Shown here: positions 34,166 through 64,000 of the stretch, one piece after another
How positions within the stretch are numbered: the first letter of the stretch is position 1
How the letters are laid out: every line of letters begins with the position of its first letter
Source: Candidatus Woesebacteria bacterium GW2011_GWC1_42_9
GTDB lineage: Bacteria > Patescibacteriota > Microgenomatia > UBA8517
Reading direction: 5' to 3'
Length of the DNA stretch: 64,000 nt
NCBI GenBank assembly: GCA_000995185.1
Contig: LCET01000004.1
Location: forward strand, 2,630 to 66,629
Made by a program: the position numbers and the translations under genes
The notes under the pieces: model-generated
What the model saw: the letters and a program-made list of their open reading frames with translations, nothing else
Database searches by the model: none
Told to the model about the DNA's origin: nothing

Positions 34166-34171
34166 CTCTAG

Positions 34172-48474: not shown

Positions 48475-49460
48475 TAGCTTGAATAGACAATTGTCGTCCC
48501 ATGATAATCAAATTGCATAGGCATATAGACTAAACCCGCCTTCTCTAAAGAAGAAATCAGTATGTGCGACTTTCCAGGACAATAAAAAAGCAAGAAACCT
48601 CCCCTTCCGGCGCCAACCAATGTTCCTCCAATTGCCCCGTTTTTTAATCCCAGATCATACCAGCGATCAATTTGGTCATTAGTTGGCTCGTCCGGTCGAA
48701 CTCTTTTGATTTGCCAATGTTTATCTAATAATTTCCCAAACAGTAAGCCATCTTTTTTCATAAGTGCGTCCTTCATCTCAAAACAAATTTCCTGTGCTGC
48801 AGAAAAATTACCAACCATCTTTTTATCTTTCTTGAGGTTAAGTTCTTTTTGGATAGTTAGAGTTTTCTTGGATGGACGGCGCAAACGCGTATCAAAAAGA
48901 TAAAGATTCTGCTCAACTTCCCGAGCAATGCCTGCATCAAATTGATCAGCGATAATTTTAACTTTACCCCGGCGATTAATCCTAAAAGCAGTCAGCCCTC
49001 CAATGGCAGTGGCATATTCATCCTGCTTTCCGGCGGGAGACTTTAGAATATCGATATTAATATGGCAAGCCTCTTCTGCTAGTTTAGTCCCAGAAACAGG
49101 CTCCTTTTTGAAATTGTGCAGGGCGTTTAAGAGACCTACGCAAAAGGCGCCCGAGGAGCCAAGGCCCGAATGACTCGGTAGATCAATAAAAGAGATAAGT
49201 TCCAAAGGTTGATCTATTTGCAAAAATTTAAGGCAAGCACGGGTTAACTTATCTTTGATTAGATTGATATTCTTTGCCTCTTGAACCTCAAAATACTTAG
49301 TAACAAAATTTCCATGGTATTTCCGATCGTGGACTAAGACATACATATACTTATCGATTGCTGCAGAAATAAAAAAACTTCCGTACTGAGAGTAAAAAGA
49401 GGGCAAATCCGTTCCCCCACCACCAACCTCTATTCGTAGAGGAGTCCTACTAATAATCAT
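48474..49460 (-). CDS. GHMP-family sugar kinase (HddA/heptose-7-P kinase-like)
   Basis: PSHSGLGSSGAFCVGLL GHMP motif. Confidence 0.7.
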   Translation of the reverse strand: MIISRTPLRIEVGGGGTDLPSFYSQYGSFFISAAIDKYMYVLVHDRKYHGNFVTKYFEVQEAKNINLIKDKLTRACLKFLQIDQPLELISFIDLPSHSGLGSSGAFCVGLLNALHNFKKEPVSGTKLAEEACHINIDILKSPAGKQDEYATAIGGLTAFRINRRGKVKIIADQFDAGIAREVEQNLYLFDTRLRRPSKKTLTIQKELNLKKDKKMVGNFSAAQEICFEMKDALMKKDGLLFGKLLDKHWQIKRVRPDEPTNDQIDRWYDLGLKNGAIGGTLVGAGRGGFLLFYCPGKSHILISSLEKAGLVYMPMQFDYHGTTIVYSS

Positions 49461-49525: not shown

Positions 49526-50827
49526 ATGAAAATTGCTGTCGTTGGGTTATGGCATTCAGGTGAAGTTTATTCAGGGTGTTTAGCAGACTTAGGTAACCAC
49601 ATTATCGGAATTGATAAAAACTCCAAGATCGTCAATAATCTAAATCGCGGGATTGCTCCCCTGGCTGAACCCAAACTGGAAGATATTATTAATAGAAACA
49701 TAAAAAAAGGGCGACTAAAATACATAACTGATTTTAGTACTATTTCCTCATGCGATGCAATTTGGATGACAATAGATACCCCGATAGATAAGGCCGCTCA
49801 TGGTAATTTGAGTAAAATATTTACATATATCAAGAAGTCTTTGCCTTTTATTAAAAACGGGGCGATTTTAATCATATCAAGCCAACTTCCTGTTGGAACT
49901 TCTAAAAAAATTATTAAATTTATTAAAGCAAACAGAAAAAATTTTATGTTTGACTATGCATATATACCGGAAAATTTACAATTAGGTAAAGCTGTAGATA
50001 GTTTCATGAAACCTTCAAGAGTTGTTATTGGTACAGATGATATCAAGCGTTTAGAGGTGATAATAAAAATTTTTGAGAAACTTAAAACAAATATACTTCT
50101 CGTAAACATCGCCTCAGCAGAGATGGTAAAACACGCAACGAACGCTTTTCTGGCTACTTCTCTAAGCTTTATCTATGACATTGCCGATGTTTGCGAAAAA
50201 GTTGGCGCCGATGTCACCGAGGTTTCCCAAAGCCTTCGGGCGGATTCGCGAATTGGCGAGAAAGCCTATTTGGATGCTAGCGCCGGGTTTTCAGGAGGGC
50301 ATCTGGATCGTGATTTACAATACTTAAGAAAAATTGCAAAAGATCAAAAACTAAATTTGCCCGTAATTTCCTCAGTACTGAAGAAAAACAAAAAAAGAAG
50401 CGCAATAGTTTTTGAGAGGATTTCCCCACTTTTAAAGACGTTTCAAGGCAAAACTATAACATTTTGGGGTATAACCTACAAGAGCGGCACACCAACATTA
50501 ACTCATTCGTTGCCGTTAAAGTTGGCCAAGGAAGCGGTGAGCCAGGGCTCAAAAATAAATCTTTGTGATCTCTGGGTAAATAAAGATGACATTAAAGGAG
50601 AAATCAATGGAGAATATGGTTATTTTACCGACCCTTATGAATCAGTTAAATCCAGTAATGCTACTATCTGTATTACTCCCTGGCCAGAACTTAAAAACCT
50701 GAACTTCAAAAAAATTGCCAGATCAATGGCCAACCCAAAGATATTTTTTGATGCCCGCAATTATTTTAACGATGAAAAAAATATAATTGAAAGAGCAGGT
50801 ATAAAATATATAGGAGTCGGACGATGA
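49526..50827 (+). CDS. UDP-glucose/GDP-mannose dehydrogenase-family protein with non-canonical active-site region
   Basis: N-terminal Rossmann MKIAVVGL...; position of GGxCxPKD reads GFSGGHLDRD (Cys to His). Confidence 0.55.
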   Translation: MKIAVVGLWHSGEVYSGCLADLGNHIIGIDKNSKIVNNLNRGIAPLAEPKLEDIINRNIKKGRLKYITDFSTISSCDAIWMTIDTPIDKAAHGNLSKIFTYIKKSLPFIKNGAILIISSQLPVGTSKKIIKFIKANRKNFMFDYAYIPENLQLGKAVDSFMKPSRVVIGTDDIKRLEVIIKIFEKLKTNILLVNIASAEMVKHATNAFLATSLSFIYDIADVCEKVGADVTEVSQSLRADSRIGEKAYLDASAGFSGGHLDRDLQYLRKIAKDQKLNLPVISSVLKKNKKRSAIVFERISPLLKTFQGKTITFWGITYKSGTPTLTHSLPLKLAKEAVSQGSKINLCDLWVNKDDIKGEINGEYGYFTDPYESVKSSNATICITPWPELKNLNFKKIARSMANPKIFFDARNYFNDEKNIIERAGIKYIGVGR

Positions 50828-51828
50828 AAAAAATCCATTTCGCTTTAATAGGTGCCGGGAAAATGGGGACAAGATGGGCACTTGTTCTGCCTAAAAGTAT
50901 CAATGCCACTCTCGATGTGATTGTAAGTATGCATCTGGATAGAGCCAAAGGCCTGGCAAGCCAGATTCCTCAATGCAAAGCCACCAACAATATCGGCGAT
51001 GTACTAAATAATAAGGGGATAGATGCAATTGTAATTGCCACTCCACATAGTTCCCTATCCCTAATCACGAGAATGGCATTTAAAGCCGGCAAACACGTAC
51101 TCTGCGAAAAACCGGGGGCAATACATTCTCACGACATTAAAAAAAATATCGCATTGGCGAAGAAAATGGGGCTTACATATATGATTGGTTATAATCATCG
51201 GTTCCATGATGGCTTTATTAAAGCCAGAAGTCTCTACCAGAAAGGAACAATTGGCAAGATTATATTTATCAGAGCCAGGTATGGTTTTTGTGGCAGGCCT
51301 GGCTACGACAAAGAGTGGCGTCTTGATAGATCAATAAATGGTGGCGGACATTTGATAGATCAGGGTGTGCACATGATCGACTTGGCGATGTCCTTCATCG
51401 GTAAAATCCAAAAAGTTCAGGGGTTTACGAGCGACACCTTCTGGAAGAAAGGCACTGAAGATAATGCATTTGTGCTTCTTCAGGGCAAAAACAAAGTTAT
51501 AGCTTCAATTCATACCAGTTTGACCCAGTGGAAAGCACTCCATAATTTTGAAATTTACGGGACTAAAGGCTACCTATCCATAGAAGGGCTTGGGATGAAG
51601 TATGGTGGAGAAGAAAAGTTGATAATTGGTAAGCGTGCGAAGGACTTTACCGGCGAAGTGAAAGAAAAAGTGATTGCTTGTAATAGTGTTGCCGATGATT
51701 CGTTAGCTTTAGAGCTAAAAGAGTTTATTTCTGCGATAAGGCAAGAGAGATCAACAACTCCCTCTCCCAATGATGCTTACGAAACCCTAAAAATTGTAGA
51801 AAAGATATACAGTGACAACAAACTATGA
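50824..51828 (+). CDS. Gfo/Idh/MocA-family NAD(P)-dependent oxidoreductase
   Basis: IHFALIGAGKMG Rossmann + family core. Confidence 0.75.
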   Translation: MKKIHFALIGAGKMGTRWALVLPKSINATLDVIVSMHLDRAKGLASQIPQCKATNNIGDVLNNKGIDAIVIATPHSSLSLITRMAFKAGKHVLCEKPGAIHSHDIKKNIALAKKMGLTYMIGYNHRFHDGFIKARSLYQKGTIGKIIFIRARYGFCGRPGYDKEWRLDRSINGGGHLIDQGVHMIDLAMSFIGKIQKVQGFTSDTFWKKGTEDNAFVLLQGKNKVIASIHTSLTQWKALHNFEIYGTKGYLSIEGLGMKYGGEEKLIIGKRAKDFTGEVKEKVIACNSVADDSLALELKEFISAIRQERSTTPSPNDAYETLKIVEKIYSDNKL

Positions 51829-52940
51829 AGCGAAAGGAAATAGTCTTAGTCACGGGAGGGGCAGGATTTGTCGGAAGCCATTTAGTAGACGCTCTAATAA
51901 GAGAGGGATACAAAACACGTATCTTAGACAACTTGTCTCCCCCCACGCATGATCGTCATATGCCCGACTGGGTTAACAAGAAAGCTGAGTTTGTAAAAGG
52001 GGACGTAAGAAAGAAAAAGGATTGGGTCAATGCGTTAAGCGGAGTTTCCATTGTGTTCCATTTGGCGGCCTATATGGATTATCACTTTGATTTTAGTCGA
52101 TACGCGGACACTAACGTACGGAGTACCACTCTTTTGTATGAGGCTGCAGTTCAAGCTAAACTCCCCCTAAAAAAGATCGTATTTGCCTCTTCTCAATCAG
52201 TTTATGGAGAAGGAAAGTACTTCTGTAAGAAACATGGAATATTTTATGCAGGACCCAGACCTGAAAGCCAATTAAAAAGACACGAGTGGGATGTTAGATG
52301 CCCGAAAGATCACGCTATTGCAAAACTTCTCCCCGAACTTGAAGCCGACGAATTACACCCACAAATACCCTACGGAATAACTAAAGCCGCATCCGAAAAA
52401 TTATGCCTGACTCTGGGAAAAACATATAACATTCCTACGGTGGTCGTTAGACCTTCAATTATACAAGGGTCAAGACAGTCTATTAGGAGTTTCTCAGGAG
52501 CGTTAAAAGACTTTTGTATTAAAGCTCTGGCGGGTACTCCCATAATGATGTACGAGGATGGAGCCGGTGTTCGTGACTTTGTTAATGTCCACGATGTTAT
52601 TGATGCCTACCTTTTAGTTCTAAAAAACAAAAGAGCCGATTATGAAATTTTCAACGTAGGAAGCGGTAAAAATACATCCCTGATGAAGTTAGCTAAAATG
52701 GTTTTTGCTATCGCCAAGTCACAATCCACTCCTACCGCGACGGGTGAATTTCGAATCAACTCTCCCCGAAGTTCAAAGATGAATATCAGCAAACTAAAAA
52801 AACTTGGCTGGAGGCCCCGGCGCACTTTAAACGATAGCATCAAAGAATATGTGGCCTGGGTAAAAGGTTATCCTGAAGCAACTAAGGCTTGGAAAAAAAC
52901 GTACGAGAAGATGATAAGAAGCGACATATTAAGGAAATGA
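51825..52940 (+). CDS. NAD-dependent nucleotide-sugar epimerase/dehydratase (extended SDR)
   Basis: VLVTGGAGFVGSHLVDAL; YGITKAASEKL (YxxxK). Confidence 0.8.
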   Translation: MKRKEIVLVTGGAGFVGSHLVDALIREGYKTRILDNLSPPTHDRHMPDWVNKKAEFVKGDVRKKKDWVNALSGVSIVFHLAAYMDYHFDFSRYADTNVRSTTLLYEAAVQAKLPLKKIVFASSQSVYGEGKYFCKKHGIFYAGPRPESQLKRHEWDVRCPKDHAIAKLLPELEADELHPQIPYGITKAASEKLCLTLGKTYNIPTVVVRPSIIQGSRQSIRSFSGALKDFCIKALAGTPIMMYEDGAGVRDFVNVHDVIDAYLLVLKNKRADYEIFNVGSGKNTSLMKLAKMVFAIAKSQSTPTATGEFRINSPRSSKMNISKLKKLGWRPRRTLNDSIKEYVAWVKGYPEATKAWKKTYEKMIRSDILRK

Positions 52941-53620
52941 AAGCAATAATACTTGCAGCGGGAGAAGGCAGAAGGATGAGGCCGCTCACAAATAAAAGAC
53001 CAAAACCTCTTCTAAAAATAAATGGGAAACCGATCATTGACTATATTCTGGAATCTTTCCCGACTGAAATTAATGAAGTGATAATTTCGGTTAAATACTT
53101 AGCTGGCCAGATAAAAAAACACGTCAACAAAAAATCAGGATTTAAGGTGAAGTATGTTTTAGGATCTGACAAAGGGTCCGCATATAGTTTTATTGCCGCC
53201 AGGAAGCATCTTTACGATGAGCGATTCTTAGTTGTACAAGGGGATGACATTCCTCACCCTGATGATATCGCCAACTGTCTTAAAAAGGATTTGAGTTATC
53301 TTACTTTTGAATCACATAATCCCCAAGCTCACGGGATAGGTTACTTGCGAAAGGACGGTTCTATTAAAAAAATTATTGAAAAGCCTAAAAAAACTACATC
53401 TACTCTTGGAGTTAATGGGGTAATGGTCTTAAATACAAACATCTTCAACTACTCACCTACTTTGATTCGAGGTGAATATTATTTCAGTACCATGATTGGC
53501 GCATTCGTTCGGGACCATAAAGTATTTCCTGTGAAGGCCAGAGATTTTATCGGAGACATTACCACGCCAGGAGATTTAATTAGAGTTGAAAATATCCTTA
53601 AAAAAAGTCATCATCGGTGA
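52937..53620 (+). CDS. Sugar-phosphate nucleotidyltransferase
   Basis: MKAIILAAGEGRRMRPLTNKRPKPLL; ATGA overlap with upstream gene. Confidence 0.8.
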   Translation: MKAIILAAGEGRRMRPLTNKRPKPLLKINGKPIIDYILESFPTEINEVIISVKYLAGQIKKHVNKKSGFKVKYVLGSDKGSAYSFIAARKHLYDERFLVVQGDDIPHPDDIANCLKKDLSYLTFESHNPQAHGIGYLRKDGSIKKIIEKPKKTTSTLGVNGVMVLNTNIFNYSPTLIRGEYYFSTMIGAFVRDHKVFPVKARDFIGDITTPGDLIRVENILKKSHHR

Positions 53621-53621
53621 T

Positions 53622-54518
53622 ATGGCCATAGATTTATCAGTGGTAATTCCCAATAGAAACTCACAATTTGCAACAAAAACAATCCAAGATTTACTTGAGA
53701 AGGCCGCTACAAATATCGAAGTGGTCGTAAATGTCGACGAGAACTGGCCTGACCCCCTGTTAGACGATAAAAGGGTTACATATATTCATCCTGGAGAGCC
53801 CCGCGGGATGAGATGGGGAATAAATTCATGTGTGGCATTAGCCCATGGCAAATACATAATGAAAACAGACGACCACTGCATGTTTGCCCCTGGTTTTGAC
53901 AAAATCCTCATCAAAAACCATCTCAAGGACAACTGGGTGCAAATCCCACGTCGATATTCTCTCGATGCCGAAAATTGGAAAATAAACGATAGTAGGCCTT
54001 ATCGCGATTATTTATATCTTTGCTTCCCAGAAAAAGGCAAAAAACACGATGACGGTATGCACGGCGTTGAATGGTGGGACAGACAAAGAAAGAGGTCCAA
54101 TCCAAAATACGATATCGATGACACTCCGAGCATGCAGGGCTCCTGCTGGTTTATGACTAAAAACCACTTCAATAATTTTTTACACGGCTTAAGCGAAGAG
54201 GGTTATGGACAATTTTCTCAGGAATCCCAAGAAATTGGCAACAAGACGTGGCTTGGCGGGGGTGCGCTAAAAGTAAATAAAAAAACTTGGTATGCCCATC
54301 TGCACAAAGGAAAGCACTACGGGAGGATGTACCATATTAGCCACGAAGAGAATCAGCGGATGATAGATGGAACAAATTGGTCAGCCAAATATTGGATGAA
54401 TAATCGCTGGAAGGACCGCATTCACGATATTGACTGGCTGGTTGATAAGAAGTTTCCCGGGATGCCAACATGGCCAAAAAACTGGAAGAAAATTTGGGCA
54501 TCTTATGGACAGTCTTAG
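53622..54518 (+). CDS. GT-A-like glycosyltransferase, paralog A
   Basis: LSVVIPNRN...; TDDHCMF; C-terminal KTWYAHLHKG...WP.NW. Confidence 0.55.
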   Translation: MAIDLSVVIPNRNSQFATKTIQDLLEKAATNIEVVVNVDENWPDPLLDDKRVTYIHPGEPRGMRWGINSCVALAHGKYIMKTDDHCMFAPGFDKILIKNHLKDNWVQIPRRYSLDAENWKINDSRPYRDYLYLCFPEKGKKHDDGMHGVEWWDRQRKRSNPKYDIDDTPSMQGSCWFMTKNHFNNFLHGLSEEGYGQFSQESQEIGNKTWLGGGALKVNKKTWYAHLHKGKHYGRMYHISHEENQRMIDGTNWSAKYWMNNRWKDRIHDIDWLVDKKFPGMPTWPKNWKKIWASYGQS

Positions 54519-54522
54519 ATAG

Positions 54523-55434
54523 ATGGCAAAAGTATCAATCATTGTCCCAAGTTGTAATGAAGCCTTTGAAGTTTCACCTGGCGTTACTGTACTCCAAAGA
54601 ACAGTGCAGGAAATTTACGAGAAGGCCACAGGCGACTTTGAGGTTATTGTTGGCTTTAATGGCCCGCCATATCAAAAGTTCCCAGAATATCCAAATTTCA
54701 AGACTGTAAATTTACCTGAGAACGTTGGCATAAAAATGATGGTCAATATCTTGGCGATTATGACAAAAGGAAAATATATTTACAAAACTGACGCACACTG
54801 CATGTTTGGAAAAGGCTTTGATGAAATTTTGCAAGCGGACATGGAAGACAACTGGGTCGTAACTCCCCGATTCTATGTATTAAACGCCAAAGAATGGAAG
54901 TGGCAGGATAATAGACATTACGACTATTTCTATTTATGTTGTCCTTTTACTGATCCCAGAGGGTTTCGATTCAAAGCCGGCGGACATTGGCCGCAAAGGA
55001 CCGCAGAGCGGGAGGGAAACCATAAATACGACATTGATGAAACCCCGCAATTTCATGGGTCGGGCTGGTTTGTGGAAAAAGATTTCTTTCTCAACAAAAT
55101 TGGCGGCTTCCCTTGTCTGGACCCCATGGGACATGCTCAGGAACCGCCGAATATTGGACTTAAGACCTGGCTCGGGCCTTGGGAAGGAAAAGTCATGGTC
55201 AATAAAAAAACTTGGTATGCGCATATGCACCAGGATGGATCAGCCAAAGGTTATCGATACACAAGACAGCAAGAGCGCACCTCATATGATGTATGGGCAA
55301 GGTATTGGATGGGTGACAAGTGGGAAGAAAGGATACATAATATCGATTGGTTCATAGAAAAGTTTATGCCCATGCCCACCTGGCCAGAAAACTGGCGTGA
55401 ACTACTAGAAAATTACCGAAAGAGCAATAAATAG
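54523..55434 (+). CDS. GT-A-like glycosyltransferase, paralog B
   Basis: Collinear with paralog A (TDAHCMF, KTWYAHMHQ, TWPENW). Confidence 0.55.
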   Translation: MAKVSIIVPSCNEAFEVSPGVTVLQRTVQEIYEKATGDFEVIVGFNGPPYQKFPEYPNFKTVNLPENVGIKMMVNILAIMTKGKYIYKTDAHCMFGKGFDEILQADMEDNWVVTPRFYVLNAKEWKWQDNRHYDYFYLCCPFTDPRGFRFKAGGHWPQRTAEREGNHKYDIDETPQFHGSGWFVEKDFFLNKIGGFPCLDPMGHAQEPPNIGLKTWLGPWEGKVMVNKKTWYAHMHQDGSAKGYRYTRQQERTSYDVWARYWMGDKWEERIHNIDWFIEKFMPMPTWPENWRELLENYRKSNK

Positions 55435-55944
55435 ATGGCAACAAAGATGTATGTATCCGGCAAATACGGAACCCACCTCGCACCCCTCATTAAGGCAGTG
55501 TCCAAAACTACCGGCGATATCCTAGAGCTTGGAATGGGAGTATTCAGTACCCCATACTTACACTATCAATGTGTCCTTTCCAATAGAAAATTAGTTTCCT
55601 TCGAGAACTATCCAGATTGGGCACAATTTTTCATCAACTATGGATATAAGCACCCAAATCACGAGATTATTGTTGTCGATCATTATGATAAGGCGGACAT
55701 TGAAAAAGAATGGGACGTAGTTTTAGTGGATCATTCTCCATCCGAAAGAAGGATCGTCGATATCAAGCGCCTGGCCAATTTAGCCAAATACATTATCATT
55801 CATGACTCAAATGGAAGATATGAGAAAATTTACCACTATTCAGAAATATATCCTCTATTTAAGTACCGGACCATCTGGGACAAAGATAGTAATCACGCAA
55901 CTGTGCTCAGTAACTTCATCAATCTCGACAATTTCTGGGAATGA
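55435..55944 (+). CDS. Short TylF/Methyltransf_24-like protein (possibly degenerate)
   Basis: ILELGMGVFST motif-I-like. Confidence 0.4.
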   Translation: MATKMYVSGKYGTHLAPLIKAVSKTTGDILELGMGVFSTPYLHYQCVLSNRKLVSFENYPDWAQFFINYGYKHPNHEIIVVDHYDKADIEKEWDVVLVDHSPSERRIVDIKRLANLAKYIIIHDSNGRYEKIYHYSEIYPLFKYRTIWDKDSNHATVLSNFINLDNFWE

Positions 55945-56615
55945 ACAGCACCATAGAATTAATTGGCAAAAAATTTGGCGTCGATGTTTCAACTAAGTCC
56001 CAAGTAATATTGGGGAAAATCAACCGAACAATTCTGACTCAAACTTTCGCTGAATTGGGATTTAATAAGGGAGCCGAAATCGGAGTAGCCGAGGGTCTCT
56101 ATTCTAAAGTTCTCCTCGATAATATTCCGGGTCTCAAATTATACGGCGTTGACATTTGGAGTAATTATCCTGGCTACGCGGAGTTAAAAGACCCCAAACA
56201 GCTTTACATTGAGGCATTAAAAAGATTAAAACCTTACAACTGCAAACTCATCAGAAAATTTAGCATGGATGCTGTCCTTGAGTTCGCCGACAATTCCTTG
56301 GACTTTGTTTTCATAGACGGCGGGCATGATTTTAAAAATGTTGCCTGCGATATTTGCGAGTGGTCAAAAAAAGTACGTGCCGGGGGCATTGTCTTTGGAC
56401 ACGATTATAAATATCACCAGGCCTATGTGCAAAAAACGCCAGGCCATTACACCAAATATAGACATGCCATTGAAGTAAAAATTGTTGCAGATGCATTCCG
56501 CGATGCAAAAAAAATCCGCCCGTGGTTTGAACTATATCCAGAAATTCCTGACCCTACTTTCGGACGGGATAATCCCTGCTGGATGTTTGTAAGACAAGAA
56601 GGAGACAAGTTATGA
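55941..56615 (+). CDS. TylF/MycF-like class I SAM-dependent O-methyltransferase, paralog 1
   Basis: GAEIGVAEGLYS; FVFIDGGHDF; GGIVFGHDY. Confidence 0.65.
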   Translation: MNSTIELIGKKFGVDVSTKSQVILGKINRTILTQTFAELGFNKGAEIGVAEGLYSKVLLDNIPGLKLYGVDIWSNYPGYAELKDPKQLYIEALKRLKPYNCKLIRKFSMDAVLEFADNSLDFVFIDGGHDFKNVACDICEWSKKVRAGGIVFGHDYKYHQAYVQKTPGHYTKYRHAIEVKIVADAFRDAKKIRPWFELYPEIPDPTFGRDNPCWMFVRQEGDKL

Positions 56616-57424
56616 ACAAAAAGAAGGTAAAAGAGTACTGGGACCAGCGGCCCTGCAACATTCGGCATTCACCTAAACCAGTAGGGACTGTTGAATATTT
56701 CAACGAAGTGGAGGATCGCCGATATTTCGTCGAACCGCATATTCTCCAATTCGCCAAATTTCCTCACTGGAAGGGAAAGCGGGTCTTGGAAATTGGCTGT
56801 GGAATAGGGACAGATATGATACGTTTCGCTCGTACCGGTGCAAAGGTTACCGCCGTCGAGTTCTCCCAAAAGTCTTTAAAAATCGCCAAACAGCGCGCCA
56901 AAGTTTTTAAATTGCAAAATAAAATAAAGTTTTATCAAGGTGACGCCGAGCATCTCACTGATTTTGTCCCTATTGCCCCTTATGATCTCGTTTACTCCTT
57001 TGGCGTCATCCACCATACACCACACCCAGAAAAAGTGATCGAACAAATACGCAATTATGTGCGGCCCGGCACCGTCATCAAACTGATGGTCTATTACCGA
57101 TATTCCTGGAGGGTGTTCTGGATTCTTTTGACCTTTGGCCGGGGACAATTTTGGCGGCTTAACGAACTGGTTGCACGCCATTCCGAAGCGCAGACTGGCT
57201 GCCCCATCACTCACCTTTATTCCCGGCGACAAATACGCAGATTACTTCATGGCTATAAAATTATAGAGATGCATGTTGACCATATTTTTCCGTACCGTAT
57301 CGCCGACTACACTAATTACCATTACCGCAAAGTGTGGTATTTTAGATGGATGCCTGGGCCCATATTTGCGTGGTTGAAACAAAATTTCGGCTGGCATTTA
57401 TTAGTCACTGCCGAGGTATACTAG
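56612..57424 (+). CDS. Class I SAM-dependent methyltransferase (Methyltransf_11/25-like)
   Basis: VLEIGCGIGTD motif I. Confidence 0.7.
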   Translation: MNKKKVKEYWDQRPCNIRHSPKPVGTVEYFNEVEDRRYFVEPHILQFAKFPHWKGKRVLEIGCGIGTDMIRFARTGAKVTAVEFSQKSLKIAKQRAKVFKLQNKIKFYQGDAEHLTDFVPIAPYDLVYSFGVIHHTPHPEKVIEQIRNYVRPGTVIKLMVYYRYSWRVFWILLTFGRGQFWRLNELVARHSEAQTGCPITHLYSRRQIRRLLHGYKIIEMHVDHIFPYRIADYTNYHYRKVWYFRWMPGPIFAWLKQNFGWHLLVTAEVY

Positions 57425-57434
57425 CTAAAGAAAA

Positions 57435-57863
57435 ATGGTGGCTCAAGGATATACAATCATTAATAATATCGACTTTGAACCTGGTGAAGTGGTTATTGAA
57501 ATTGGATCAGAAAGAGGAGAAGGTTCTACTGGATATTTGGACAACTTCGACTGGACATACGAAGGTACTGAGAATATACCACGAGTAAGGCGTTGTGTAG
57601 CGAAGTACAAAGAACTGGGGGTTGATTTGAATAACACAGATAGCCAGAAAGCCCATTTGCAACAATCTGTCCTCGTGTCTGATTATGTTGCTAAAAATGG
57701 CGTTATTCTCTTTGATGATACCTGGCAACCAAGTGAGGGTGTATTTAGCGGGAAGGGTGGCACAGCAGTACCTTGGTTACTAAGCCACGGTTTTGAGATT
57801 TACAAAACGTACAATACACCGAATTTAGAGTGGAACTTCGTATCGGTTATAAAAACATCATGA
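57435..57863 (+). CDS. Short TylF-like domain protein
   Basis: VVIEIGSERGEGST...ILFDD. Confidence 0.4.
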   Translation: MVAQGYTIINNIDFEPGEVVIEIGSERGEGSTGYLDNFDWTYEGTENIPRVRRCVAKYKELGVDLNNTDSQKAHLQQSVLVSDYVAKNGVILFDDTWQPSEGVFSGKGGTAVPWLLSHGFEIYKTYNTPNLEWNFVSVIKTS

Positions 57864-58666
57864 TATACGCCGTCTACCGCTGTTTGTATGGTGAAGATTT
57901 TATCCAAGAATCGATAAGATCAATTAGGGATTATGTCGATAAGATTTTTATATTCTGGGATGACAAGCCTTGGGGAGACATAGAATCATGTATTTATAAA
58001 GGGGAAGAAGTTAAGTTTCCGAAGAAATTCGACAACATTCTTGACAAAATTCAAGAGTTAAACGACCCTAAAGTCGTCTTGATACACGATCATGTTGAGA
58101 ACAACCTTGGACAATTTACCCATCTCATTAATGACATTATTCTTAAGAATTGGCAAAAACCTGACCTGTTTATAGTGATCGAAGTAGACCATGTTTTAAA
58201 ACAATCAGAGATGAAGAGAGCTTTGGGACATATGTCTTCTGGACAAATCAGGCACGCGACCACCAAACCATTAGAATTATGGAAAACATATGAATACAGA
58301 ATACCCGAGAGAAACAGATTAGCAACTGTATTCTGGAATATGGACGGACTAGAACGCTTACCAGATACCGGCAGACAGGCCAACGCTGGACAAACAGCGG
58401 TCTTGCCGGTTTATACTCATAACTTTGGCTTTTGCTTTAATCCTCAGACTATGTATTGGAAACACTTAACAGCGCTGGGTTACGCTAAAAAAATAGGTGA
58501 CCGACTCCCAAATGAGGATTGGTATGATAAATGGTTAAATTGGTCAATCAATGACGATAATAAAGATTTAGAAATATCTAAAGGACGTGAACATACAATT
58601 CCCTATGCCTATCGATATGATGTTAATGAATTGCCTGAGGCTATCAAGGATAAATATAAACTATGA
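57860..58666 (+). CDS. Hypothetical glycosyltransferase-like protein (ATGA-coupled to upstream gene)
   Basis: ATG 57860 overlaps stop of 57435-57863; no clear family. Confidence 0.4.
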   Translation: MIYAVYRCLYGEDFIQESIRSIRDYVDKIFIFWDDKPWGDIESCIYKGEEVKFPKKFDNILDKIQELNDPKVVLIHDHVENNLGQFTHLINDIILKNWQKPDLFIVIEVDHVLKQSEMKRALGHMSSGQIRHATTKPLELWKTYEYRIPERNRLATVFWNMDGLERLPDTGRQANAGQTAVLPVYTHNFGFCFNPQTMYWKHLTALGYAKKIGDRLPNEDWYDKWLNWSINDDNKDLEISKGREHTIPYAYRYDVNELPEAIKDKYKL

Positions 58667-59760
58667 GCAGACACGAAAGATTAACCCAAATATATTCGAC
58701 ATGGGGAGACAAACTCCTCCAACACACCGATGTTCTAAACTCGATTCAAGAGAAAAGACAATTCCAGCCAATTACAATTCAGTTAGCGCCTGTCGAAGCT
58801 TGCGAGAGCGACTGTCCGTTTTGTTCAGTTGCAGCAAGACCAATCAAAAGTTATTTACCTTTTGATCAATTAAGCAAATGTTTGCAAGATTTTAGATCAC
58901 TAGGGGCAAAAAGCCTCGAGATTACTGGCGGTGGCAATCCACTTTTATATCGAGATCGAGAAAACGGAAAAAACATTAATGATGTTGTCCAACTAGCGGC
59001 TAAATTGGGCTTAGATATCGGCATAATCACCAACGGCCACGATTTAAAGGTTCTCAATCCAGGGTTATACGATCAAATCAACTGGATTAGAATTAGTCTC
59101 ATCAAGCTTGACGAAGGAGTAGCCCCAGAAGCTTATGACTTTCACGGCTTTCCTGAGTCCAAACTAGGTTTTAGTTATATAATTTATGAAACGGGCGGTG
59201 TTCCCGATCCCCTTTCCAAAACTGGACGAACATATACAGGTACCACTGCAGAAACAATCCAAAAGATGGCAAGTTTAGTTGAAATGCATCCCGATGTAAA
59301 ATTTGTGAGAATCGCCGGCAACTGCTTAATCAAGGGCAATAACGCAGTTATTCGAGATAAATATAAAGATGTCATTGATGCTGTTGATGAACACGGTAAG
59401 TTCTTCATTAAAGATATTGGCGACAATGATTCTCCGTTCAATGATGGCTGCTATATTGGTATGATCAGGCCTTATGTCGCCCCCTCTCCGACGGGTGACG
59501 GTTACATGGTTTATACCTGCACCAGTCATGTTCTTAATACCCGAACCTATGATCCGGCTTATGCGTTATGTAAAATTGAAGATATAATACCTGCTTGGCA
59601 AAGAATGAATGAAAAATTTGCCACCGATGGCCATCCATATGAGGTAAAAGGCAATGGCGGACATAATTGGTGCCATTCATGCAAATTTTGTTATTACCAC
59701 AATAATAACCAATTATTACACTCTGTGTCTAACGAGATGCCAGACAAGAACTTTCCGTGA
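58663..59760 (+). CDS. Radical SAM enzyme with C-terminal Cys cluster
   Basis: CESDCPFC (CxxxCxxC), GGGNPLL SAM motif, C-terminal CHSCKFC. Confidence 0.7.
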   Translation: MSRHERLTQIYSTWGDKLLQHTDVLNSIQEKRQFQPITIQLAPVEACESDCPFCSVAARPIKSYLPFDQLSKCLQDFRSLGAKSLEITGGGNPLLYRDRENGKNINDVVQLAAKLGLDIGIITNGHDLKVLNPGLYDQINWIRISLIKLDEGVAPEAYDFHGFPESKLGFSYIIYETGGVPDPLSKTGRTYTGTTAETIQKMASLVEMHPDVKFVRIAGNCLIKGNNAVIRDKYKDVIDAVDEHGKFFIKDIGDNDSPFNDGCYIGMIRPYVAPSPTGDGYMVYTCTSHVLNTRTYDPAYALCKIEDIIPAWQRMNEKFATDGHPYEVKGNGGHNWCHSCKFCYYHNNNQLLHSVSNEMPDKNFP

Positions 59761-59775
59761 AAGAAAAAACTTTCC

Positions 59776-60387
59776 ATGAAATACGGCAAAGACTATTTTA
59801 AGAATCTAAATTACACCGACTACCTAGAAAGGCGCGATAAGTATCTCAATCACGCCAAAGAACTTCATGAATTTCTAGGTAGATTAGGACTTATCTCTGA
59901 AAAAAGTTCAATAATGGATTATGGTTGTGCAGTTGGCTTTTTAATGGAGGGGTTTAAGGAGCTTGGGTATCAGAATGTATATGGATACGATATCTCTAAA
60001 TGGGCTGTTGCCCAGGCTAAAGCTAAGGGTTTAAAGATTCTTAATCATATTGATCACCAGTCCTTTGGTGTTATTATTTGTCTTGATGTTTTTGAACACA
60101 TGACTGATCGTGAAATCCATAAGGTTTTTAATCAATATGAATCCAATGTTATGATAGTTAGAATTCCTTGCTCTAGCGATGGGAAACGGTTTATGCTTAA
60201 TATCTCAAACAATGACCCAACCCATAGCAATCTCAAAACTAAGAATGGTTGGCTTAAGTTGTTAAAAAAATTGGGATACACAACCATCCTGCCGTTAAAT
60301 TTACTTACAATTTACGATACTCCCGGAGTGATGTGTGCGCTGGGTTTAAAACCTAAAGCATACTTGAATCACAAATCATCTCTTTGA
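59776..60387 (+). CDS. Class I SAM-dependent methyltransferase
   Basis: IMDYGCAVGF motif I; VIICLDVFEHM. Confidence 0.65.
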   Translation: MKYGKDYFKNLNYTDYLERRDKYLNHAKELHEFLGRLGLISEKSSIMDYGCAVGFLMEGFKELGYQNVYGYDISKWAVAQAKAKGLKILNHIDHQSFGVIICLDVFEHMTDREIHKVFNQYESNVMIVRIPCSSDGKRFMLNISNNDPTHSNLKTKNGWLKLLKKLGYTTILPLNLLTIYDTPGVMCALGLKPKAYLNHKSSL

Positions 60388-60391
60388 AAAT

Positions 60392-62257
60392 ATGATTAGC
60401 GTCATAATCCCAAGCAGAAACAGACCAAATGAATTGCTTATCTCTCTTACGAGTCTAGGACTAGCAAAACATGGCCTGGAAGCCCTTGTTTGGCTCGATG
60501 ATGATGACCCGCAGCTTGATAAATATAAAGAATTTTTTGGATCAGATCCAAATGTCAGACTGTTTATCAAAGAACGGGTTGGCTACAAAAATACTTATGT
60601 GATGCTAAATTTCCTTTGCACTGAAGCCAAATATGATTGGATCCTCCAATTTAATGATGACGCTTACATGGAGTACCCCCACTGGTTTGAAATATTCAAA
60701 GACTTTGTCAGAGAATTTGAGCCCACTAACCAACCAATTGTCATTAACCTTTGGGGGCAGGGGGAAACAATTCTTAATCTTTTCCCACTTGTCAGCAGGA
60801 AATTTATTGACCTGCTTGGCTACTACACCATGTACCCTGTTTGCGATGATTGGATCCGCATGGTCGGCATTAGCGCAAATATTTCATACGACCTAAAAGG
60901 AATAAAACCAAAGCACCGGAAATACGGAGGAGAAGACCAATTAACCGATAAAACTTTTGAAGAAGTTCAAAATGACCGGGGGATGATGAAAAGGACCTAT
61001 GACCACAGGCGCACCCCGTATAGACAGCAGTTGCGGCAGGAAATTTCCAAAATCGTCGATTACAACATGTCCACCGAATCTTGCAGACTTTCCGAAAGAA
61101 TAAAAACTGTCGGCTTTATCGGACTTGGAAAATTAGGTCTGCCGATCGCGGAGGCAATCGCAAAGCGGGGCTTTAACGTCCTTGGGTATGACATTAAAAA
61201 AGTTAAAACCACTCTTCCGCTTGCAAAATCTATTAATGAACTGGTTAAAAAAAGCGACCTTGTCTTTTGTGCAGTACAAACTCCCCACAATCCTCTGTTT
61301 GAAGGCGATAAGCCCCTTCCCAAAAGACGAGCAGATTTCGATTATTCATATCTCGTTAAGGCTGTAAAGGCGGTGGCCGCGGTTAACAAAAGAACAAATT
61401 TAACTGTAATTTCGACTTGCCTGCCGGGTACTTATAATCGCGTTATCAAGCCGCTTTTAAGCGATAAGATTAATTATCTCTATAACCCATTTTTTATCGC
61501 CATGGGCAGAGAGGTAGAAGATTACATGAACCCGGAATTTGTGTTAATCGGCGGGGACGATACCGCGATATTAAAACACTTTTATACCAAGCTTCATGGA
61601 CGCGATAGAGCCTTTGTCACCGACATAACCACAGCAGAAGGGATCAAAGTTTTCTATAACACCTTTGTCACTGCAAAAATAGTTTTGGGAAATATGTACG
61701 GAGAGTTTGCCCATAGGCTAGGGATGAACGTCGATGACATCCATAGTGCCTTAACTAAAGCTACCTTCCGTCTCATTAGCCCTATGTACCTAAAGTCAGG
61801 CGTTGGAGACGGCGGCGGATGTCACCCCCGCGACAATATCGCCCTAAGTTTTCTGGCAAAAAAGATTAATTTAAGCTCTAATTTGTTTGACACGCTTATG
61901 ACCGCACGAGAAAATCACATGGGATGGTTGGGAACCATTTTCAAGGAAGAAATGAAATCATCGGGACTTCCGGGAATAATATTAGGTAAATCTTTTAAAC
62001 CGGAAACTAGCTTGCAAACAGGAAGCCCTGCCATACTCCTGGCAAACATTTTAAAGCGAAAACGCGTAGCTTTTAAACACTATGAATTTGATTATCCAAA
62101 AAAGTTACCGGTTGCAGTCTATCTTCTGGCAACCCAACACCCCCAATACCGAGAGTTAGGGTATCCAAAGGGCAGTATTGTTATTGATCCCTTCAGGTAT
62201 ATCAACAAAATAAACGGTGTAAAAATTATCGCAATTGGTAAAAAATATGAAATTTAG
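60392..62257 (+). CDS. Fusion: N-terminal GT-A-like domain + C-terminal nucleotide-sugar dehydrogenase (UDP-glucose/GDP-mannose DH family)
   Basis: N-term MISVIIPSRNRPNEL; C-term VGFIGLGKLGLPIA Rossmann and GDGGGCHPRDN catalytic-Cys motif. Confidence 0.65.
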   Translation: MISVIIPSRNRPNELLISLTSLGLAKHGLEALVWLDDDDPQLDKYKEFFGSDPNVRLFIKERVGYKNTYVMLNFLCTEAKYDWILQFNDDAYMEYPHWFEIFKDFVREFEPTNQPIVINLWGQGETILNLFPLVSRKFIDLLGYYTMYPVCDDWIRMVGISANISYDLKGIKPKHRKYGGEDQLTDKTFEEVQNDRGMMKRTYDHRRTPYRQQLRQEISKIVDYNMSTESCRLSERIKTVGFIGLGKLGLPIAEAIAKRGFNVLGYDIKKVKTTLPLAKSINELVKKSDLVFCAVQTPHNPLFEGDKPLPKRRADFDYSYLVKAVKAVAAVNKRTNLTVISTCLPGTYNRVIKPLLSDKINYLYNPFFIAMGREVEDYMNPEFVLIGGDDTAILKHFYTKLHGRDRAFVTDITTAEGIKVFYNTFVTAKIVLGNMYGEFAHRLGMNVDDIHSALTKATFRLISPMYLKSGVGDGGGCHPRDNIALSFLAKKINLSSNLFDTLMTARENHMGWLGTIFKEEMKSSGLPGIILGKSFKPETSLQTGSPAILLANILKRKRVAFKHYEFDYPKKLPVAVYLLATQHPQYRELGYPKGSIVIDPFRYINKINGVKIIAIGKKYEI

Positions 62258-62358
62258 TCCCGGCTATGGCAGTCATTTGCCAGTCTTAGTAAAAGACAAA
62301 AACCATACACATCGTTACCAAGAAATTTTATAGATCCTCTCTATGTTCTATCGCAAAT

Positions 62359-63078
62359 ATGAATGATTTAACCATACTTTATTACACTGCCAACACTATC
62401 CCTGACATTCCTGGGCAGAGAATAAGAGACTACCTTCAAAAAATCATTCAAAATAAATATCCGATAATTAGTGTTTCCCAAAAACCTATCAATTTAGGGA
62501 AAAATATTTGCGTGGGTCAAATCGGCAGATCGAAATACAATGAGTATAAACAAATATTGATTGGTGCCAGAGAAGCTAAAACAAAATATATAGCAACTGC
62601 TGAAGATGACACACTCTATTCGGCAGATCACTTTACCTTCCGACCAGCAGATGACTATTTTTATTATGAAACAAATATGTGGCTAGCTCGCGAAGAATAC
62701 TTCTGGCGGATGGAAAATGTAAATGCCCGTTTTGGTATGTGGGGGTGTATGGCAAGGAAAGATATTCTAGTGAAAAACCTAACCCAAAGATATTCACTAT
62801 TTCCCACTGATCCGTTACCAAAAAGTGATAAAAATAATTCTAAATATCGTAGTCTGAGGTGGGGTGAACCAGGTACACACGATGAACAATTCGGTATGGA
62901 AAATAAACGAAAATTGTTTACATCCAAAGAGCCAACCATAACCTTTATATACAAACAATCAATGGGCGGAAGGCACTTTCTGGGGCGCTATGGTAATAGC
63001 AATCCTGAAAATACAGCAAAAAAAATAAAGAAACACGGAGAATCCAAAAAATTATGGAAAACTTATTGGATAGACTAA
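62359..63078 (+). CDS. GT-A-like family paralog C (shorter)
   Basis: KYIATAEDDTLYSADHF aligns with TDDHCMFAPGFD of paralogs A/B. Confidence 0.4.
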   Translation: MNDLTILYYTANTIPDIPGQRIRDYLQKIIQNKYPIISVSQKPINLGKNICVGQIGRSKYNEYKQILIGAREAKTKYIATAEDDTLYSADHFTFRPADDYFYYETNMWLAREEYFWRMENVNARFGMWGCMARKDILVKNLTQRYSLFPTDPLPKSDKNNSKYRSLRWGEPGTHDEQFGMENKRKLFTSKEPTITFIYKQSMGGRHFLGRYGNSNPENTAKKIKKHGESKKLWKTYWID

Positions 63079-63116
63079 TTAATCCAAATAAATCATAATC
63101 AAGTATTAAAATACTC

Positions 63117-63749
63117 ATGAATTCAGCACTACAATACATCAAAAATAAATATAATCTCGACTATAATATAGAATCTCCCATCACTCTAGCTCCGTTTCAT
63201 CGTTACCACCAGTTAGTTGATTTATTTAGAGAACTTGAATTCATCAAAGGAGCAGAGATAGGCACTGCAAGAGCAGTATATGCAGAAATCCTTTGTAAAG
63301 GGATACCTGATCTAAAACTATACTGCGTCGATCCATGGCTAGCTTATGATGAATACGACGAAAGATGGGCACAAGAACAGATAGAAATGGATAGGATATT
63401 TGAAGAAGCAAAAAACAAACTGTCAAATTATAATTGCGAAATCATCAAAAAGACTAGCATGGAAGCGTCCAAAGACTTCAAACCCAACAGCTTAGATTTT
63501 GTTTTCATAGATGGAAACCACGATTTCGAATATGTAGTCAACGACATAATTGCTTGGATGAAAATTGTAAAACCAGGTGGAATAATATCGGGTCATGATT
63601 TCACCACAAATGTAGTCAAGGGAACACACTTTCAAATTCCCTACGCTGTGCGAGCATATGCACAGGCCTACGACATACATCCCTGGTTTGTATTGCATCA
63701 CAGTGGCACCGTTGATTGTTGGATGTGGGTAAAACCAGACAAAACTTGA
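63117..63749 (+). CDS. TylF/MycF-like class I SAM-dependent O-methyltransferase, paralog 2
   Basis: GAEIGTARAVYA; FVFIDGNHDF; GGIISGHDF. Confidence 0.65.
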   Translation: MNSALQYIKNKYNLDYNIESPITLAPFHRYHQLVDLFRELEFIKGAEIGTARAVYAEILCKGIPDLKLYCVDPWLAYDEYDERWAQEQIEMDRIFEEAKNKLSNYNCEIIKKTSMEASKDFKPNSLDFVFIDGNHDFEYVVNDIIAWMKIVKPGGIISGHDFTTNVVKGTHFQIPYAVRAYAQAYDIHPWFVLHHSGTVDCWMWVKPDKT

Positions 63750-63780: not shown

Positions 63781-64000
63781 ATGAGAAGCATAAAGCTTCA
63801 AATATCTTTTACTATACTTCTCTCTTTGATTTTTCTTTTATCCACTCCCACTGAAGCTTCTGCAGTAATTCAAAACCTAAACGGTGCAACTGGACAAACT
63901 CAAACTTTCCAAAACGATTCAAATGTAACTATAAATTCAAACAACGACGTCCACTCCTTGGGTTGGACAGGATTCCTACCTGCCTCCAGAGGTGGAACAG
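63781..64000 (+). CDS. Secreted protein, N-terminal part (runs off window end)
   Basis: MRSIKLQISFTILLSLIFLLSTPTEASA signal peptide; no stop before 64000. Confidence 0.45.
   Translation, partial: MRSIKLQISFTILLSLIFLLSTPTEASAVIQNLNGATGQTQTFQNDSNVTINSNNDVHSLGWTGFLPASRGGT

Follow-up and report, generated by a model that had tools for sequence, protein, structure and literature searches.

A Woesebacteria gene array that may O-glycosylate and O-methylate a serine-rich protein

We analysed a 64,000-nucleotide stretch of the genome of Candidatus Woesebacteria bacterium GW2011_GWC1_42_9 (contig LCET01000004.1; hereafter the window), centring on an array of glycan genes that begins at 49526 on the plus strand and continues past the end of the window. 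In the reading that we favour, and hold with middling confidence, this region is the enzyme part of an array for cytoplasmic O-glycosylation and O-methylation of a serine-rich protein. What points this way is a family of soluble glycosyltransferases (GTs) whose catalytic domain aligns with that of the polypeptide GalNAc-transferases (ppGalNAc-Ts), a 1036-aa protein with long serine-rich repeats encoded further along the same strand, and GT and methyltransferase families that recur, often fused, across related loci.

Organization of the array

Every open reading frame (ORF) called as a gene between 49526 and 63749 is on the plus strand, as a first-pass annotation of this DNA had stated, and the overlaps that it placed at 52937, 55941, 56612, 57860 and 58663 proved to be 4-nt ATGA stop/start junctions. 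Two additional ATGA overlaps, at 50824 and 51825, make seven such junctions altogether. The remaining intergenic gaps are 0-15 nt long, the exceptions being 38 nt before 63117 and 101 nt, the largest, before 62359. A simple scan found no terminator-like site in any intergenic gap; its promoter-like and terminator-like counts roughly equal those of shuffled sequence, so it gives no verdict on internal signals either way. That the array is a single transcription unit is a reasonable inference from this layout. In window-equivalent coordinates it extends from 49526 to about 71640 and holds roughly 23 genes.

From g06 to g17 (53622-63749) the array encodes one radical S-adenosylmethionine (SAM) enzyme, one dehydrogenase domain and five domains of GT-A type. 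Five further products are credible methyltransferase-fold proteins, and a sixth is a remnant. None of these enzymes contains a transmembrane (TM) segment, which marks them as soluble. This content supports the earlier description of a tightly packed array for glycan assembly and tailoring, including the radical SAM gene at 58663-59760 and two further class I methyltransferases (56612-57424 and 59776-60387). The GT-A fold of g12 and the fusion in g15 had both been left unclassified. All-against-all BLAST of the products found only two real paralog pairs, g06/g07 and g09/g17. The genes of this part, together with the one that runs off the end of the window, are:

53622..54518, +: g06, soluble GT-A glycosyltransferase, ppGalNAc-T (GT27)-like (Pfam GT2, 2.1e-10; family profile)
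54523..55434, +: g07, ancient g06 paralog, GT27-like (38.6% identity to g06, BLAST E=5e-64)
55435..55944, +: g08, 169 aa, probable class I methyltransferase fold (no Pfam match; weak profile matches)
55941..56615, +: g09, class I Methyltransf_24 (MT24) protein, putative sugar O-methyltransferase (Pfam PF13578, 2e-13)
56612..57424, +: g10, class I methyltransferase, first gene of an accessory cassette with phage relatives (Pfam Methyltransf_31/23/25)
57435..57863, +: g11, remnant with an in-frame deletion, 142 aa (homologs 180-225 aa, a few with PF13578)
57860..58666, +: g12, rare glycosyltransferase-like protein with a predicted GT-A fold (AlphaFold2 model, pLDDT 98; Foldseek)
58663..59760, +: g13, radical SAM enzyme (invariant CX3CX2C at C47/C51/C54)
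59776..60387, +: g14, Methyltransf_23 (MT_23) protein, partner of the radical SAM enzyme (Pfam, 9.7e-11)
60392..62257, +: g15, N-terminal GT-A-like domain fused to a nucleoside diphosphate (NDP)-sugar 6-dehydrogenase (Pfam, NCBIfam)
62359..63078, +: g16, probably GT-A-like, with an invariant 'EDD.LY' motif (no Pfam match; homology to the C-terminal half of a 560-aa GT encoded beyond the window)
63117..63749, +: g17, MT24 protein, g09 paralog (Pfam, 6e-16; 38% identity to g09, E=4.5e-45)
63781..64000, +: 5' end of g18, 414-aa secreted protein with a signal-peptide-like N-terminus (full gene L001:15119-16363, sequence from an identical contig)

GT27-like glycosyltransferases

Of the 298 positions in the g06-family profile, 4-267 are covered by matches to ppGalNAc-T9, T4, T1, T2 and T12 (best E=3.7e-7). 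With other GT2 structures the match is confined to the first ~90 residues. g06 itself carries a DxH motif (TDDHC), the His within WYAHLH and, in QESQEIGNKTWLGGG, the conserved Glu residues of a Gal/GalNAc-T-like motif. Across the family, D83-x-H85 and H226 are invariant and align with the ppGalNAc-T DxH and with the His of 'GH(I/V)F', and in the region of the Gal/GalNAc-T motif (WGGENxE...W.CGG) E201, E204 and 'TWLGGG' are conserved and aligned, with WGG replaced by F-[AS]-Q. At ~300 aa, g06 and g07 contain no ricin-type lectin domain, extra domain or TM segment. Because the lectin domain and the membrane segment are missing, we call the family GT27-like and do not propose membership of GT27.

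More than 2000 homologs of g06 were found, the best 120 of them at 63-85% identity and from Patescibacteria where named, and g07 orthologs in other loci are 54-90% identical. Since the orthologs of g06 and of g07 elsewhere (63-91% identical) are far closer to each than g06 is to g07 (38%), the duplication is ancient. The paralog expansion that the first-pass annotation described is Patescibacteria-wide and not special to this genome. A third paralog forms the N-terminal half of the 560-aa GT beyond the window (34% identity, E=3e-48).

g16 is probably GT-A-like. It is 31% identical to residues 333-476 of the 560-aa GT (L001:17613-19292; E=6e-16), and in hhalign it gives a weak profile match to the GT27-like family (E=0.0024) in which EDD.LY is aligned to TDDH. 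The first-pass annotation had grouped g06, g07 and g16 as a paralogous GT-A trio; the g06/g07 relationship stands, and g16, with no BLAST similarity to either, was rejected as their paralog at that level and keeps the weak profile link only. In another Woesebacteria genome the ortholog of the 560-aa GT is interrupted by an intein (Intein_splicing, Hint_2; L047:10868-14410, +), which is unusual for a glycosyltransferase.

These families recur in a set of 75 distinct related loci, obtained from a scan with one genome per prokaryotic species and labelled Woesebacteria, Microgenomates, Saccharibacteria, Zambryskibacteria, WWE3, Levybacteria, Collierbacteria, Paceibacterota and others; many of the loci are cut at +/-10 kb. 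ORF clustering placed the GT27-like enzymes, g16 and the 560-aa GT in a group of 252 ORFs found in 75/75 loci, the MT24 family had 150 ORFs in 62/75 loci, and the g08 family had 42 ORFs in 34/75. The median locus of at least 15 kb contains three GT-type and two methyltransferase-type ORFs.

A serine-rich protein beyond the window

The array continues after g18 with genes for a 165-aa protein, a truncated dehydrogenase-like protein, the 560-aa bifunctional GT (L151:13159-14841) and a 151-aa methyltransferase. Then follows a plus-strand ORF of 1036 aa (L151:15418-18528, window-equivalent about 68534-71644), its ATG 2 nt past the previous stop. The encoded protein is 39% Ser overall. A stretch of ~700 residues made up of SPSASxS repeats (50% Ser) separates its ~165-aa N-terminal domain from a C-terminal one of ~130 aa, and the latter is conserved in another locus (E=6e-12). 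The DNA repeats of the gene are degenerate, with 64-74% matches, so it is not a simple microsatellite. Public annotation has a 764-aa minus-strand gene here (L151:15885-18179; Asp/Glu/Ala/Leu/Gly-rich), which reads the serine-rich ORF in antisense and which we rejected as an artefact; the plus-strand ORF is taken as the real gene. Antisense gene calls probably hide this class of serine-rich protein in public annotations.

Proteins with SPSAS repeats are encoded in 13/75 related loci, always on the GT strand, and were found in 0/61 of the viral loci described below and nowhere in the window. More generally, the gene right after the bifunctional GT reaches a Ser+Thr content of at least 0.20 in 15 of 26 loci; of all ORFs, 89 of 1078 do so. 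Directly downstream of the serine-rich gene lie two TatA_B_E genes (tatA and a second of tatA/B type) and tatC (L151:18793-19893, +), and tatC is within 10 kb of the cluster in 22/75 loci, in another arrangement. The first-pass annotation had predicted a poly-O-methylated glycan as the product. An O-methylated glycan is still plausible, and the serine-rich protein and tat genes beyond the end of the window shift the expected product from a free glycan to a glycoprotein.

g18, which precedes these genes, has Asn/Ser/Thr-rich 'NTAVG' repeats like those of phage tail spikes (phrog_4636 tail spike, 5.5e-23), and its homologs adjoin GT27-like genes in two other loci (L069 and L078).

Methyltransferases of the array

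The methyltransferases of the array very likely act on sugars. The best evidence that their target is the glycan comes from relatives in which GTs are fused to methyltransferase domains: fusions of GT27-like enzymes with MT_23 or FkbM, of g16-like proteins with MT24 and of g12 with MT_23 were all found. Pfam methyltransferase matches of g09, g10, g14 and g17 are above cut-offs, and g08 has weak profile support.

Four methyltransferases, two full-length and two short, had been described as TylF-like. Of this claim the g09/g17 pair remains as paralogous methyltransferases; TylF/MycF membership was rejected, as g08, g09, g11 and g17 had no PF05711 match at the Pfam reporting threshold used for the TylF/MT24 comparisons (E<=0.01). 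At that threshold g09 and g17 match Methyltransf_24 and, weakly, Methyltransf_11 only, and g08 and g11 match no Pfam model. The nearest solved relatives of g09 and g17 are family-3 (CCoAOMT-like) O-methyltransferases (E about 5e-4).

The two short copies differ. g08 is probably a small methyltransferase-fold protein: its family profile matches PDB 3ntv (E=5.9e-4), which the MT24 profile also matches, and a tRNA 5-hydroxyuridine methyltransferase, and hhalign aligns the g08 and MT24 families with each other (E=0.003), including motif I and an 'IDH' motif. g11 is missing ~66 residues between 'EGSTG' and 'YLDNFDW' that are present in an 85-88%-identical relative; it keeps motif I, has lost the segment bearing motif II and is probably inactive. 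Its profile comparisons were not significant, and with the internal deletion it was rejected as a working short methyltransferase.

An accessory cassette with phage relatives

Genes g10-g15 (5.6 kb) form an accessory cassette that looks exchanged, and most of its relatives are found in T4-like and huge phages. A match to phrog_22502 (6.3e-57) covers g10 from end to end; the gene is present in just 1-2/75 of the Candidate Phyla Radiation (CPR) loci, and g10 occurs together with g12-g15 in only one of the 75 (L050). Homologs of g13 numbered 551, the top 120 at 59-78% identity. Six of six inspected long non-CPR contigs were phage-like, encoding gp32, gp23, DnaB, RecA/UvsX, ribonucleotide reductase or PolB. 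In all six an MT_23 gene directly follows the radical SAM gene, and in 5/6 one or more GTs precede it; in the remaining contig (L085) the immediate upstream genes have no family match. A 204-kb contig also has g12 (52% identity) and the dehydrogenase (40%).

A scan of IMG/VR added 61 viral loci at 50-68% identity to g13, with one outlier at 28%. An MT_23 partner lies directly downstream in at least 39 of 51 viral loci, and a GT25 or GT8-like gene is usually just upstream. Counting any position, a g14-type gene accompanies the radical SAM gene in 54/61 viral loci and in all seven inspected phage or phage-like contexts. Host-recognition clusters of pelagimyophages likewise join tail fibres, GTs, rfaE, UDP-glucose dehydrogenase and radical SAM cassettes (PMC7029224).

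Heptose genes stand beside the cassette in three settings: the window, one set of marine (Tara) contigs and Synechococcus phage SynMITS9220M01, where the radical SAM relative is distant (25%). A general link between radical SAM cassettes and heptose was rejected: such genes are present in a minority of the 61 viral loci, where the cytidylyltransferase forms part of a fusion with a mannose-6-phosphate-isomerase-type cupin. Because heptose genes are missing from most viral loci, we do not claim heptose as the substrate of the cassette.

The radical SAM enzyme g13 plausibly acts on a sugar or sugar nucleotide and belongs to a distinct family with no characterised member. Its match to Pfam PF04055 scores 27.0 bits, just below the cut-off of 29.5. 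At least four further Cys residues, among C221, C263, C286, C340 and C343, are invariant in the family, and an auxiliary Fe-S cluster is probable. The AlphaFold2 model (pLDDT 89.8) superposes on radical SAM structures with probability 1.0, its neighbours being DesII, SuiB, viperin, SpeY, BtrN and BlsE at a TM-score of about 0.5 and 12-16% identity. That two of these neighbours, DesII and BlsE, have sugar-nucleoside substrates supports this reading of the cassette. The NCBIfam BlsE model matches g13 at E=3.8e-4, short of its 400-bit cut-off for membership.

The best PDB sequence match of g14 is MccD (E=2e-4, N-terminal part only), which we take to transfer an aminocarboxypropyl group from SAM and not a methyl group. 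Calling g14 a methyltransferase may therefore be wrong.

g12 had no Pfam, NCBIfam or PHROG match, and sequence searches of the PDB and other GT families were also empty; its relatives make up just 177 representative clusters among 1.84 billion proteins. A GT-A fold is predicted from the structural model, for which the Foldseek matches include SunS, heparosan synthase 2, WrtF and TarS, with GT-A enzymes leading and nucleotidyltransferases lower. D27 and D110 are nearly invariant. The g12-type domain is fused to GT29 (sialyltransferase family) in other metagenomic proteins (P0247, P0253, P0258, P0267, P0272 and P0292), which hints that some g12 relatives handle nonulosonic- or ulosonic-acid-type sugars; elsewhere it is also fused to GT2 or a methyltransferase. 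The last gene of the cassette, g15, matches phrog_9148 UDP-glucose dehydrogenase (7.5e-65) and phrog_14945 glycosyltransferase (2.9e-8).

Sugar supply and upstream genes

The genes preceding g06 include four at the start of the array and, before those, two membrane-protein genes and a set of sugar-phosphate genes on both strands:

44568..45758, +: u00, 396 aa, one TM segment and a C-terminal SH3_3 domain (Pfam SH3_3, 2.2e-9)
45759..46340, +: u0, 193-aa membrane protein, two N-terminal TM segments (conserved alignment; C-terminal ~95-aa conserved domain)
46358..47008, +: SIS-domain isomerase, GmhA-like (sedoheptulose-7-phosphate isomerase; Pfam SIS_2; best NCBIfam match gmhA, 6.4e-28, below the curated cut-off)
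46956..47786, +: transaldolase / fructose-6-phosphate aldolase family (Pfam TAL_FSA, 2.5e-29)
47791..48474, -: HAD phosphatase, beta-phosphoglucomutase-like, not GmhB-type (Pfam HAD_2; NCBIfam PGMB-YQAB-SF, 8.6e-27)
48474..49460, -: GHMP gene, HddA-like (best NCBIfam match HddA, 2.4e-39, below cut-off)
49526..50827, +: g02, NDP-sugar (UDP-glucose type) 6-dehydrogenase, first gene of the plus-strand array (three UDPG_MGDP_dh domains; NCBIfam NDP-sugDHase, 2.8e-88, above cut-off)
50824..51828, +: g03, Gfo/Idh/MocA oxidoreductase, a sugar or NDP-sugar dehydrogenase (Pfam/NCBIfam; ATGA overlap with g02)
51825..52940, +: g04, extended short-chain dehydrogenase/reductase, NDP-sugar epimerase/dehydratase (Pfam Epimerase, 8.9e-44; ATGA overlap)
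52937..53620, +: g05, sugar-1-phosphate nucleotidylyltransferase (Pfam NTP_transferase, 1.1e-23)

Plausibly, the building blocks include NDP-heptose and a uronic or keto sugar. The transaldolase-family protein is a possible source of sedoheptulose-7-phosphate, and the HAD protein may be a sugar-phosphate phosphatase. As a nucleotidyltransferase g05 is generic, HddC being only a lower-ranked NCBIfam match (1.2e-14). Transaldolase-family, SIS and GHMP genes co-occur near the GT cluster in 5-6 related loci, and no heptose-specific tailoring enzyme (of DmhA type, for example) was identified at the locus. For the heptose content proposed by the first-pass annotation, the best NCBIfam matches to GmhA and HddA make an NDP-heptose supply plausible; both matches fall below curated cut-offs, and heptose in the product is unproven.

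The u0 family comprises 32 ORFs in 31/75 loci, directly upstream of the cluster, and had no Pfam or PHROG match. Its alignment contains a highly conserved motif, D-K-R-x-F-L-K-L-I-G with a hydrophobic stretch, which resembles a twin-arginine signal and is placed after the two TM helices. A u00 family member stands upstream of the GT cluster in 21/75 loci.

Genomic setting

A 16S rRNA gene (4030-5519, -) and the start of a 23S gene (1-204, -) identify the window as bacterial DNA. Candidatus Woesebacteria bacterium GW2011_GWB1_43_14 encodes a protein with 100% identity to g13, and groundwater metagenomes are the source of identical contigs. The ~3.8 kb between the 16S and 23S genes hold tRNA-Ala (240-315, -), an oppositely oriented tRNA-Ile-GAT (503-577, +) and a 752-aa ORF (1103-3361, +). 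The window also contains two neighbouring tRNA-Met(CAT) genes (32739-32886) and, at 34171-34244 (-), a tRNA-Ile gene with a TAT anticodon, which is uncommon among bacteria. Four small tandem ORFs at 37700-39585 (-), with 18-22% Ser/Thr and in most cases a hydrophobic N-terminus, may encode pilin-like or other surface proteins.

Proposed mechanism

If the region does serve O-glycosylation of the serine-rich protein, the GT27-like enzymes would start and extend O-linked glycans on its repeats in the cytoplasm. The donors would be NDP-sugars supplied by the upstream genes, an NDP-heptose and a uronic acid possibly among them, and the MT24 and g08-type methyltransferases would O-methylate the sugars during addition. 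The radical SAM enzyme and its partner may remodel one sugar or sugar nucleotide by a dehydrogenase-, lyase- or decarboxylase-type step followed by an alkylation, and the adjacent GT-A protein g12 could transfer the remodelled sugar. The glycoprotein would then leave the cell, with the neighbouring twin-arginine translocation (Tat) system as the candidate route. We infer that a protein is the acceptor and that the sugars are methylated, and likewise what the radical SAM pair does and on which substrate.

Several points weigh against this proposal. It draws on homology and gene neighbourhood throughout, and the 75 loci are phylogenetically non-independent, so that counts overstate the support. 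Active-site motifs like those of the GT27-like enzymes are also found in GT7 and GT2 enzymes with sugar acceptors. SPSAS-type proteins are encoded in only the 13 loci mentioned above, within a set in which many loci end at +/-10 kb, and other loci carry different serine/threonine-rich proteins. On the supply side, the heptose-type genes score below NCBIfam cut-offs and the HAD phosphatase is not of GmhB type. The serine-rich protein has no signal peptide, twin-arginine motif or cell-wall anchor (LPXTG), and its N-terminus ('MAVLTKEANAHT...') is not hydrophobic. Because the first two are missing, Tat export, suggested by adjacency, is just a lead, as is the KRxFLK motif of u0.

Alternative explanations

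The main rival, which we consider somewhat unlikely, is a carrier-linked surface polysaccharide, such as a capsule, a secondary cell-wall polymer or an S-layer glycan precursor, built on polyprenyl-phosphate by peripheral soluble GTs. Genes for priming, flippase or exporter, and ligase would then lie elsewhere, and the serine-rich protein would be unrelated or glycosylated outside the cell. Most bacterial clusters with many GT2, methyltransferase and NDP-sugar genes make carrier-linked glycans, and soluble GTs are normal in such pathways. Its heptose-type supply genes also resemble those of S-layer-glycan and capsule pathways. Membrane components are available elsewhere in the window in a GtrB-like membrane GT2 (11773-12744, -, three predicted TM segments) and a 9-TM protein (12751-13824, +), and a few related loci have sporadic membrane proteins near the cluster, of Wzy_C+TPR type in 4 and of MurJ type in 3. 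Against this stands the absence, within +/-10 kb of the cluster in the 75 loci, of any conserved flippase, ABC exporter, priming phosphoglycosyltransferase or other priming or polyprenyl-phosphate GT, or GT-C enzyme. Against it, too, are a GT family that is, over its full length, closest to the protein-acting ppGalNAc-Ts and the strong enrichment of serine/threonine-rich proteins right after the bifunctional GT.

The GtrB-like GT2 and the 9-TM protein are adjoined by an ORF at 10905-11795 (-) that is YdjC-like by its N-terminal sequence alone; together these look like a separate, membrane-side glycosylation set.

A second alternative is an intracellular polymethylated polysaccharide, analogous to the methylmannose and methylglucose polysaccharides of mycobacteria, in which GTs and O-methyltransferases alternate and nothing is exported. 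It would account for enzymes that are all soluble, for the lack of a conserved exporter and for GT and methyltransferase genes that are co-expanded and often fused. The MT24 profile also has a weak match (E=0.0079) to PDB 6g7d, presumably the mycobacterial MeT1 sugar 1-O-methyltransferase, but this match spans just ~38 residues. No MmpH-like glycoside hydrolase partner was seen at the locus, and the serine/threonine-rich neighbours, the secreted g18 and the tat genes would be left unexplained. We judge this explanation very unlikely.

A third alternative, in our view highly improbable, is that the region itself is, or stems from, a phage or mobile element for surface or receptor modification, equipped with a tail-spike-like protein. 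Phage relatives or PHROG matches do exist for g10, g12-g15 and the repeats of g18, and pelagimyophage host-recognition clusters carry comparable cassettes (PMC7029224). However, phage replication, packaging and capsid genes are absent from the region, and g06-g09, g16, g17, the 560-aa GT and u0 are chromosomal and syntenic across many Patescibacteria lineages. GC content is even throughout, and only the 5.6 kb of g10-g15 looks exchanged.

The least probable explanation is that unrelated operons, each with a promoter of its own, lie side by side by chance and have no common product, a mosaic that the first-pass annotation had itself raised: the phage relatives of g10-g15, set within a CPR core, do make the array an evolutionary mosaic, and the 101-nt gap before 62359 and internal promoters are compatible with the simple promoter scan, but seven 4-nt overlaps with most other gaps at most 15 nt, the sugar-nucleotide or glycan chemistry of every gene, and the co-occurrence and fusion of the same families in many genomes all speak against it.

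Significance

We return to the proposal that the array glycosylates and methylates a serine-rich protein. A bolder form of it, which we offer as speculation and think quite unlikely, is that Patescibacteria share a widespread, undescribed O-glycosylation system in which several ppGalNAc-T-like enzymes put heavily O-methylated glycans on signal-less serine-rich proteins while these are still in the cytoplasm. These would reach the surface by an unconventional route, perhaps involving Tat and u0. The glycans here might include heptose or a sugar remodelled by the radical SAM enzyme, and the phage-exchanged cassette would make a new rare sugar. We found no account of such a system in the searchable literature on CPR glycosylation, bacterial GT27 or phage radical SAM/heptose cassettes, just general remarks on phage cassettes with GT and radical SAM genes.

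CPR bacteria have tiny genomes and live attached to other cells. The locus type spends about 20 kb on surface-glycan chemistry and recurs across the radiation; because so much of such small genomes is given to it, and so widely, it is likely central to how these cells present themselves toward hosts and phages. Viral contigs from a range of metagenomes carry the pair of radical SAM enzyme and methyltransferase at 50-68% identity to that of a groundwater bacterium; this strongly conserved pair may mark an unknown sugar modification of many large phages.

Comparison with known systems

The upstream genes resemble the heptose-supply set (GmhA/HddA/GmhB/HddC) in that a SIS isomerase, a GHMP kinase, a phosphatase and a nucleotidyltransferase are grouped with GTs. 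They differ from it in a phosphatase that is beta-phosphoglucomutase-like, a nucleotidyltransferase that is generic, and scores that all fall below cut-off. With TylF and MycF the array shares class I SAM-dependent enzymes encoded beside GTs, and sugar O-methylation is a plausible role for g09 and g17, which nevertheless fit MT24 and not PF05711.

DesII, BlsE, BtrN and SpeY are the best structural neighbours of g13, which has extra Cys residues as in twitch/SPASM members and sits in a setting of NDP-sugar genes that include a uronic-acid-forming dehydrogenase. Unlike them, g13 belongs to a distinct family, 50-78% conserved internally, paired with MT_23, usually with a GT upstream and mostly in phage copies. 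Such cassettes are also known from marine phages of T4-like type, among them pelagimyophages and cyanomyophages. The same GT-radical SAM-MT_23 unit, sometimes with UDP-glucose dehydrogenase and heptose genes, occurs on contigs from Tara and IMG/VR. In this genome the unit lies inside a chromosomal Patescibacteria locus, and its GT is g12.

By analogy, the array would follow the logic of the serine-rich repeat protein (SRRP) loci of Fap1, GspB and SraP, with GtfA/GtfB and accessory Sec, yet with none of their defining components. Both have a large serine-rich repeat protein with a variable non-repeat domain, soluble cytoplasmic GTs and an adjacent export system. Here, however, the called genes include no GtfA/GtfB (GT4; Glycos_transf_1) pair and no SecA2, SecY2 or Asp protein, and the GTs are of GT-A type. 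The repeat protein is without a long signal peptide or LPXTG, tatA, a tatA/B-type gene and tatC take the place of accessory Sec, and a large methyltransferase set is present.

The closest enzymatic parallel is with the GT27 ppGalNAc-Ts that initiate mucin-type glycosylation in animals. The whole GT-A catalytic domain aligns, with DxH, both Glu residues, W..GG and the downstream His, and the context is alike in that g06-family genes adjoin genes for extremely serine-rich repeat proteins. The bacterial enzymes differ in having no lectin domain, membrane anchor or secretory-pathway location, in their low identity (profile E about 4e-7), and in occurring as several paralogs per locus, many of them fused to methyltransferases. 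If the GT27-like enzymes do glycosylate serine-rich repeats, they would form a bacterial counterpart of mucin-type O-glycosylation, with an enzyme set unlike that of the Gram-positive SRRP systems.

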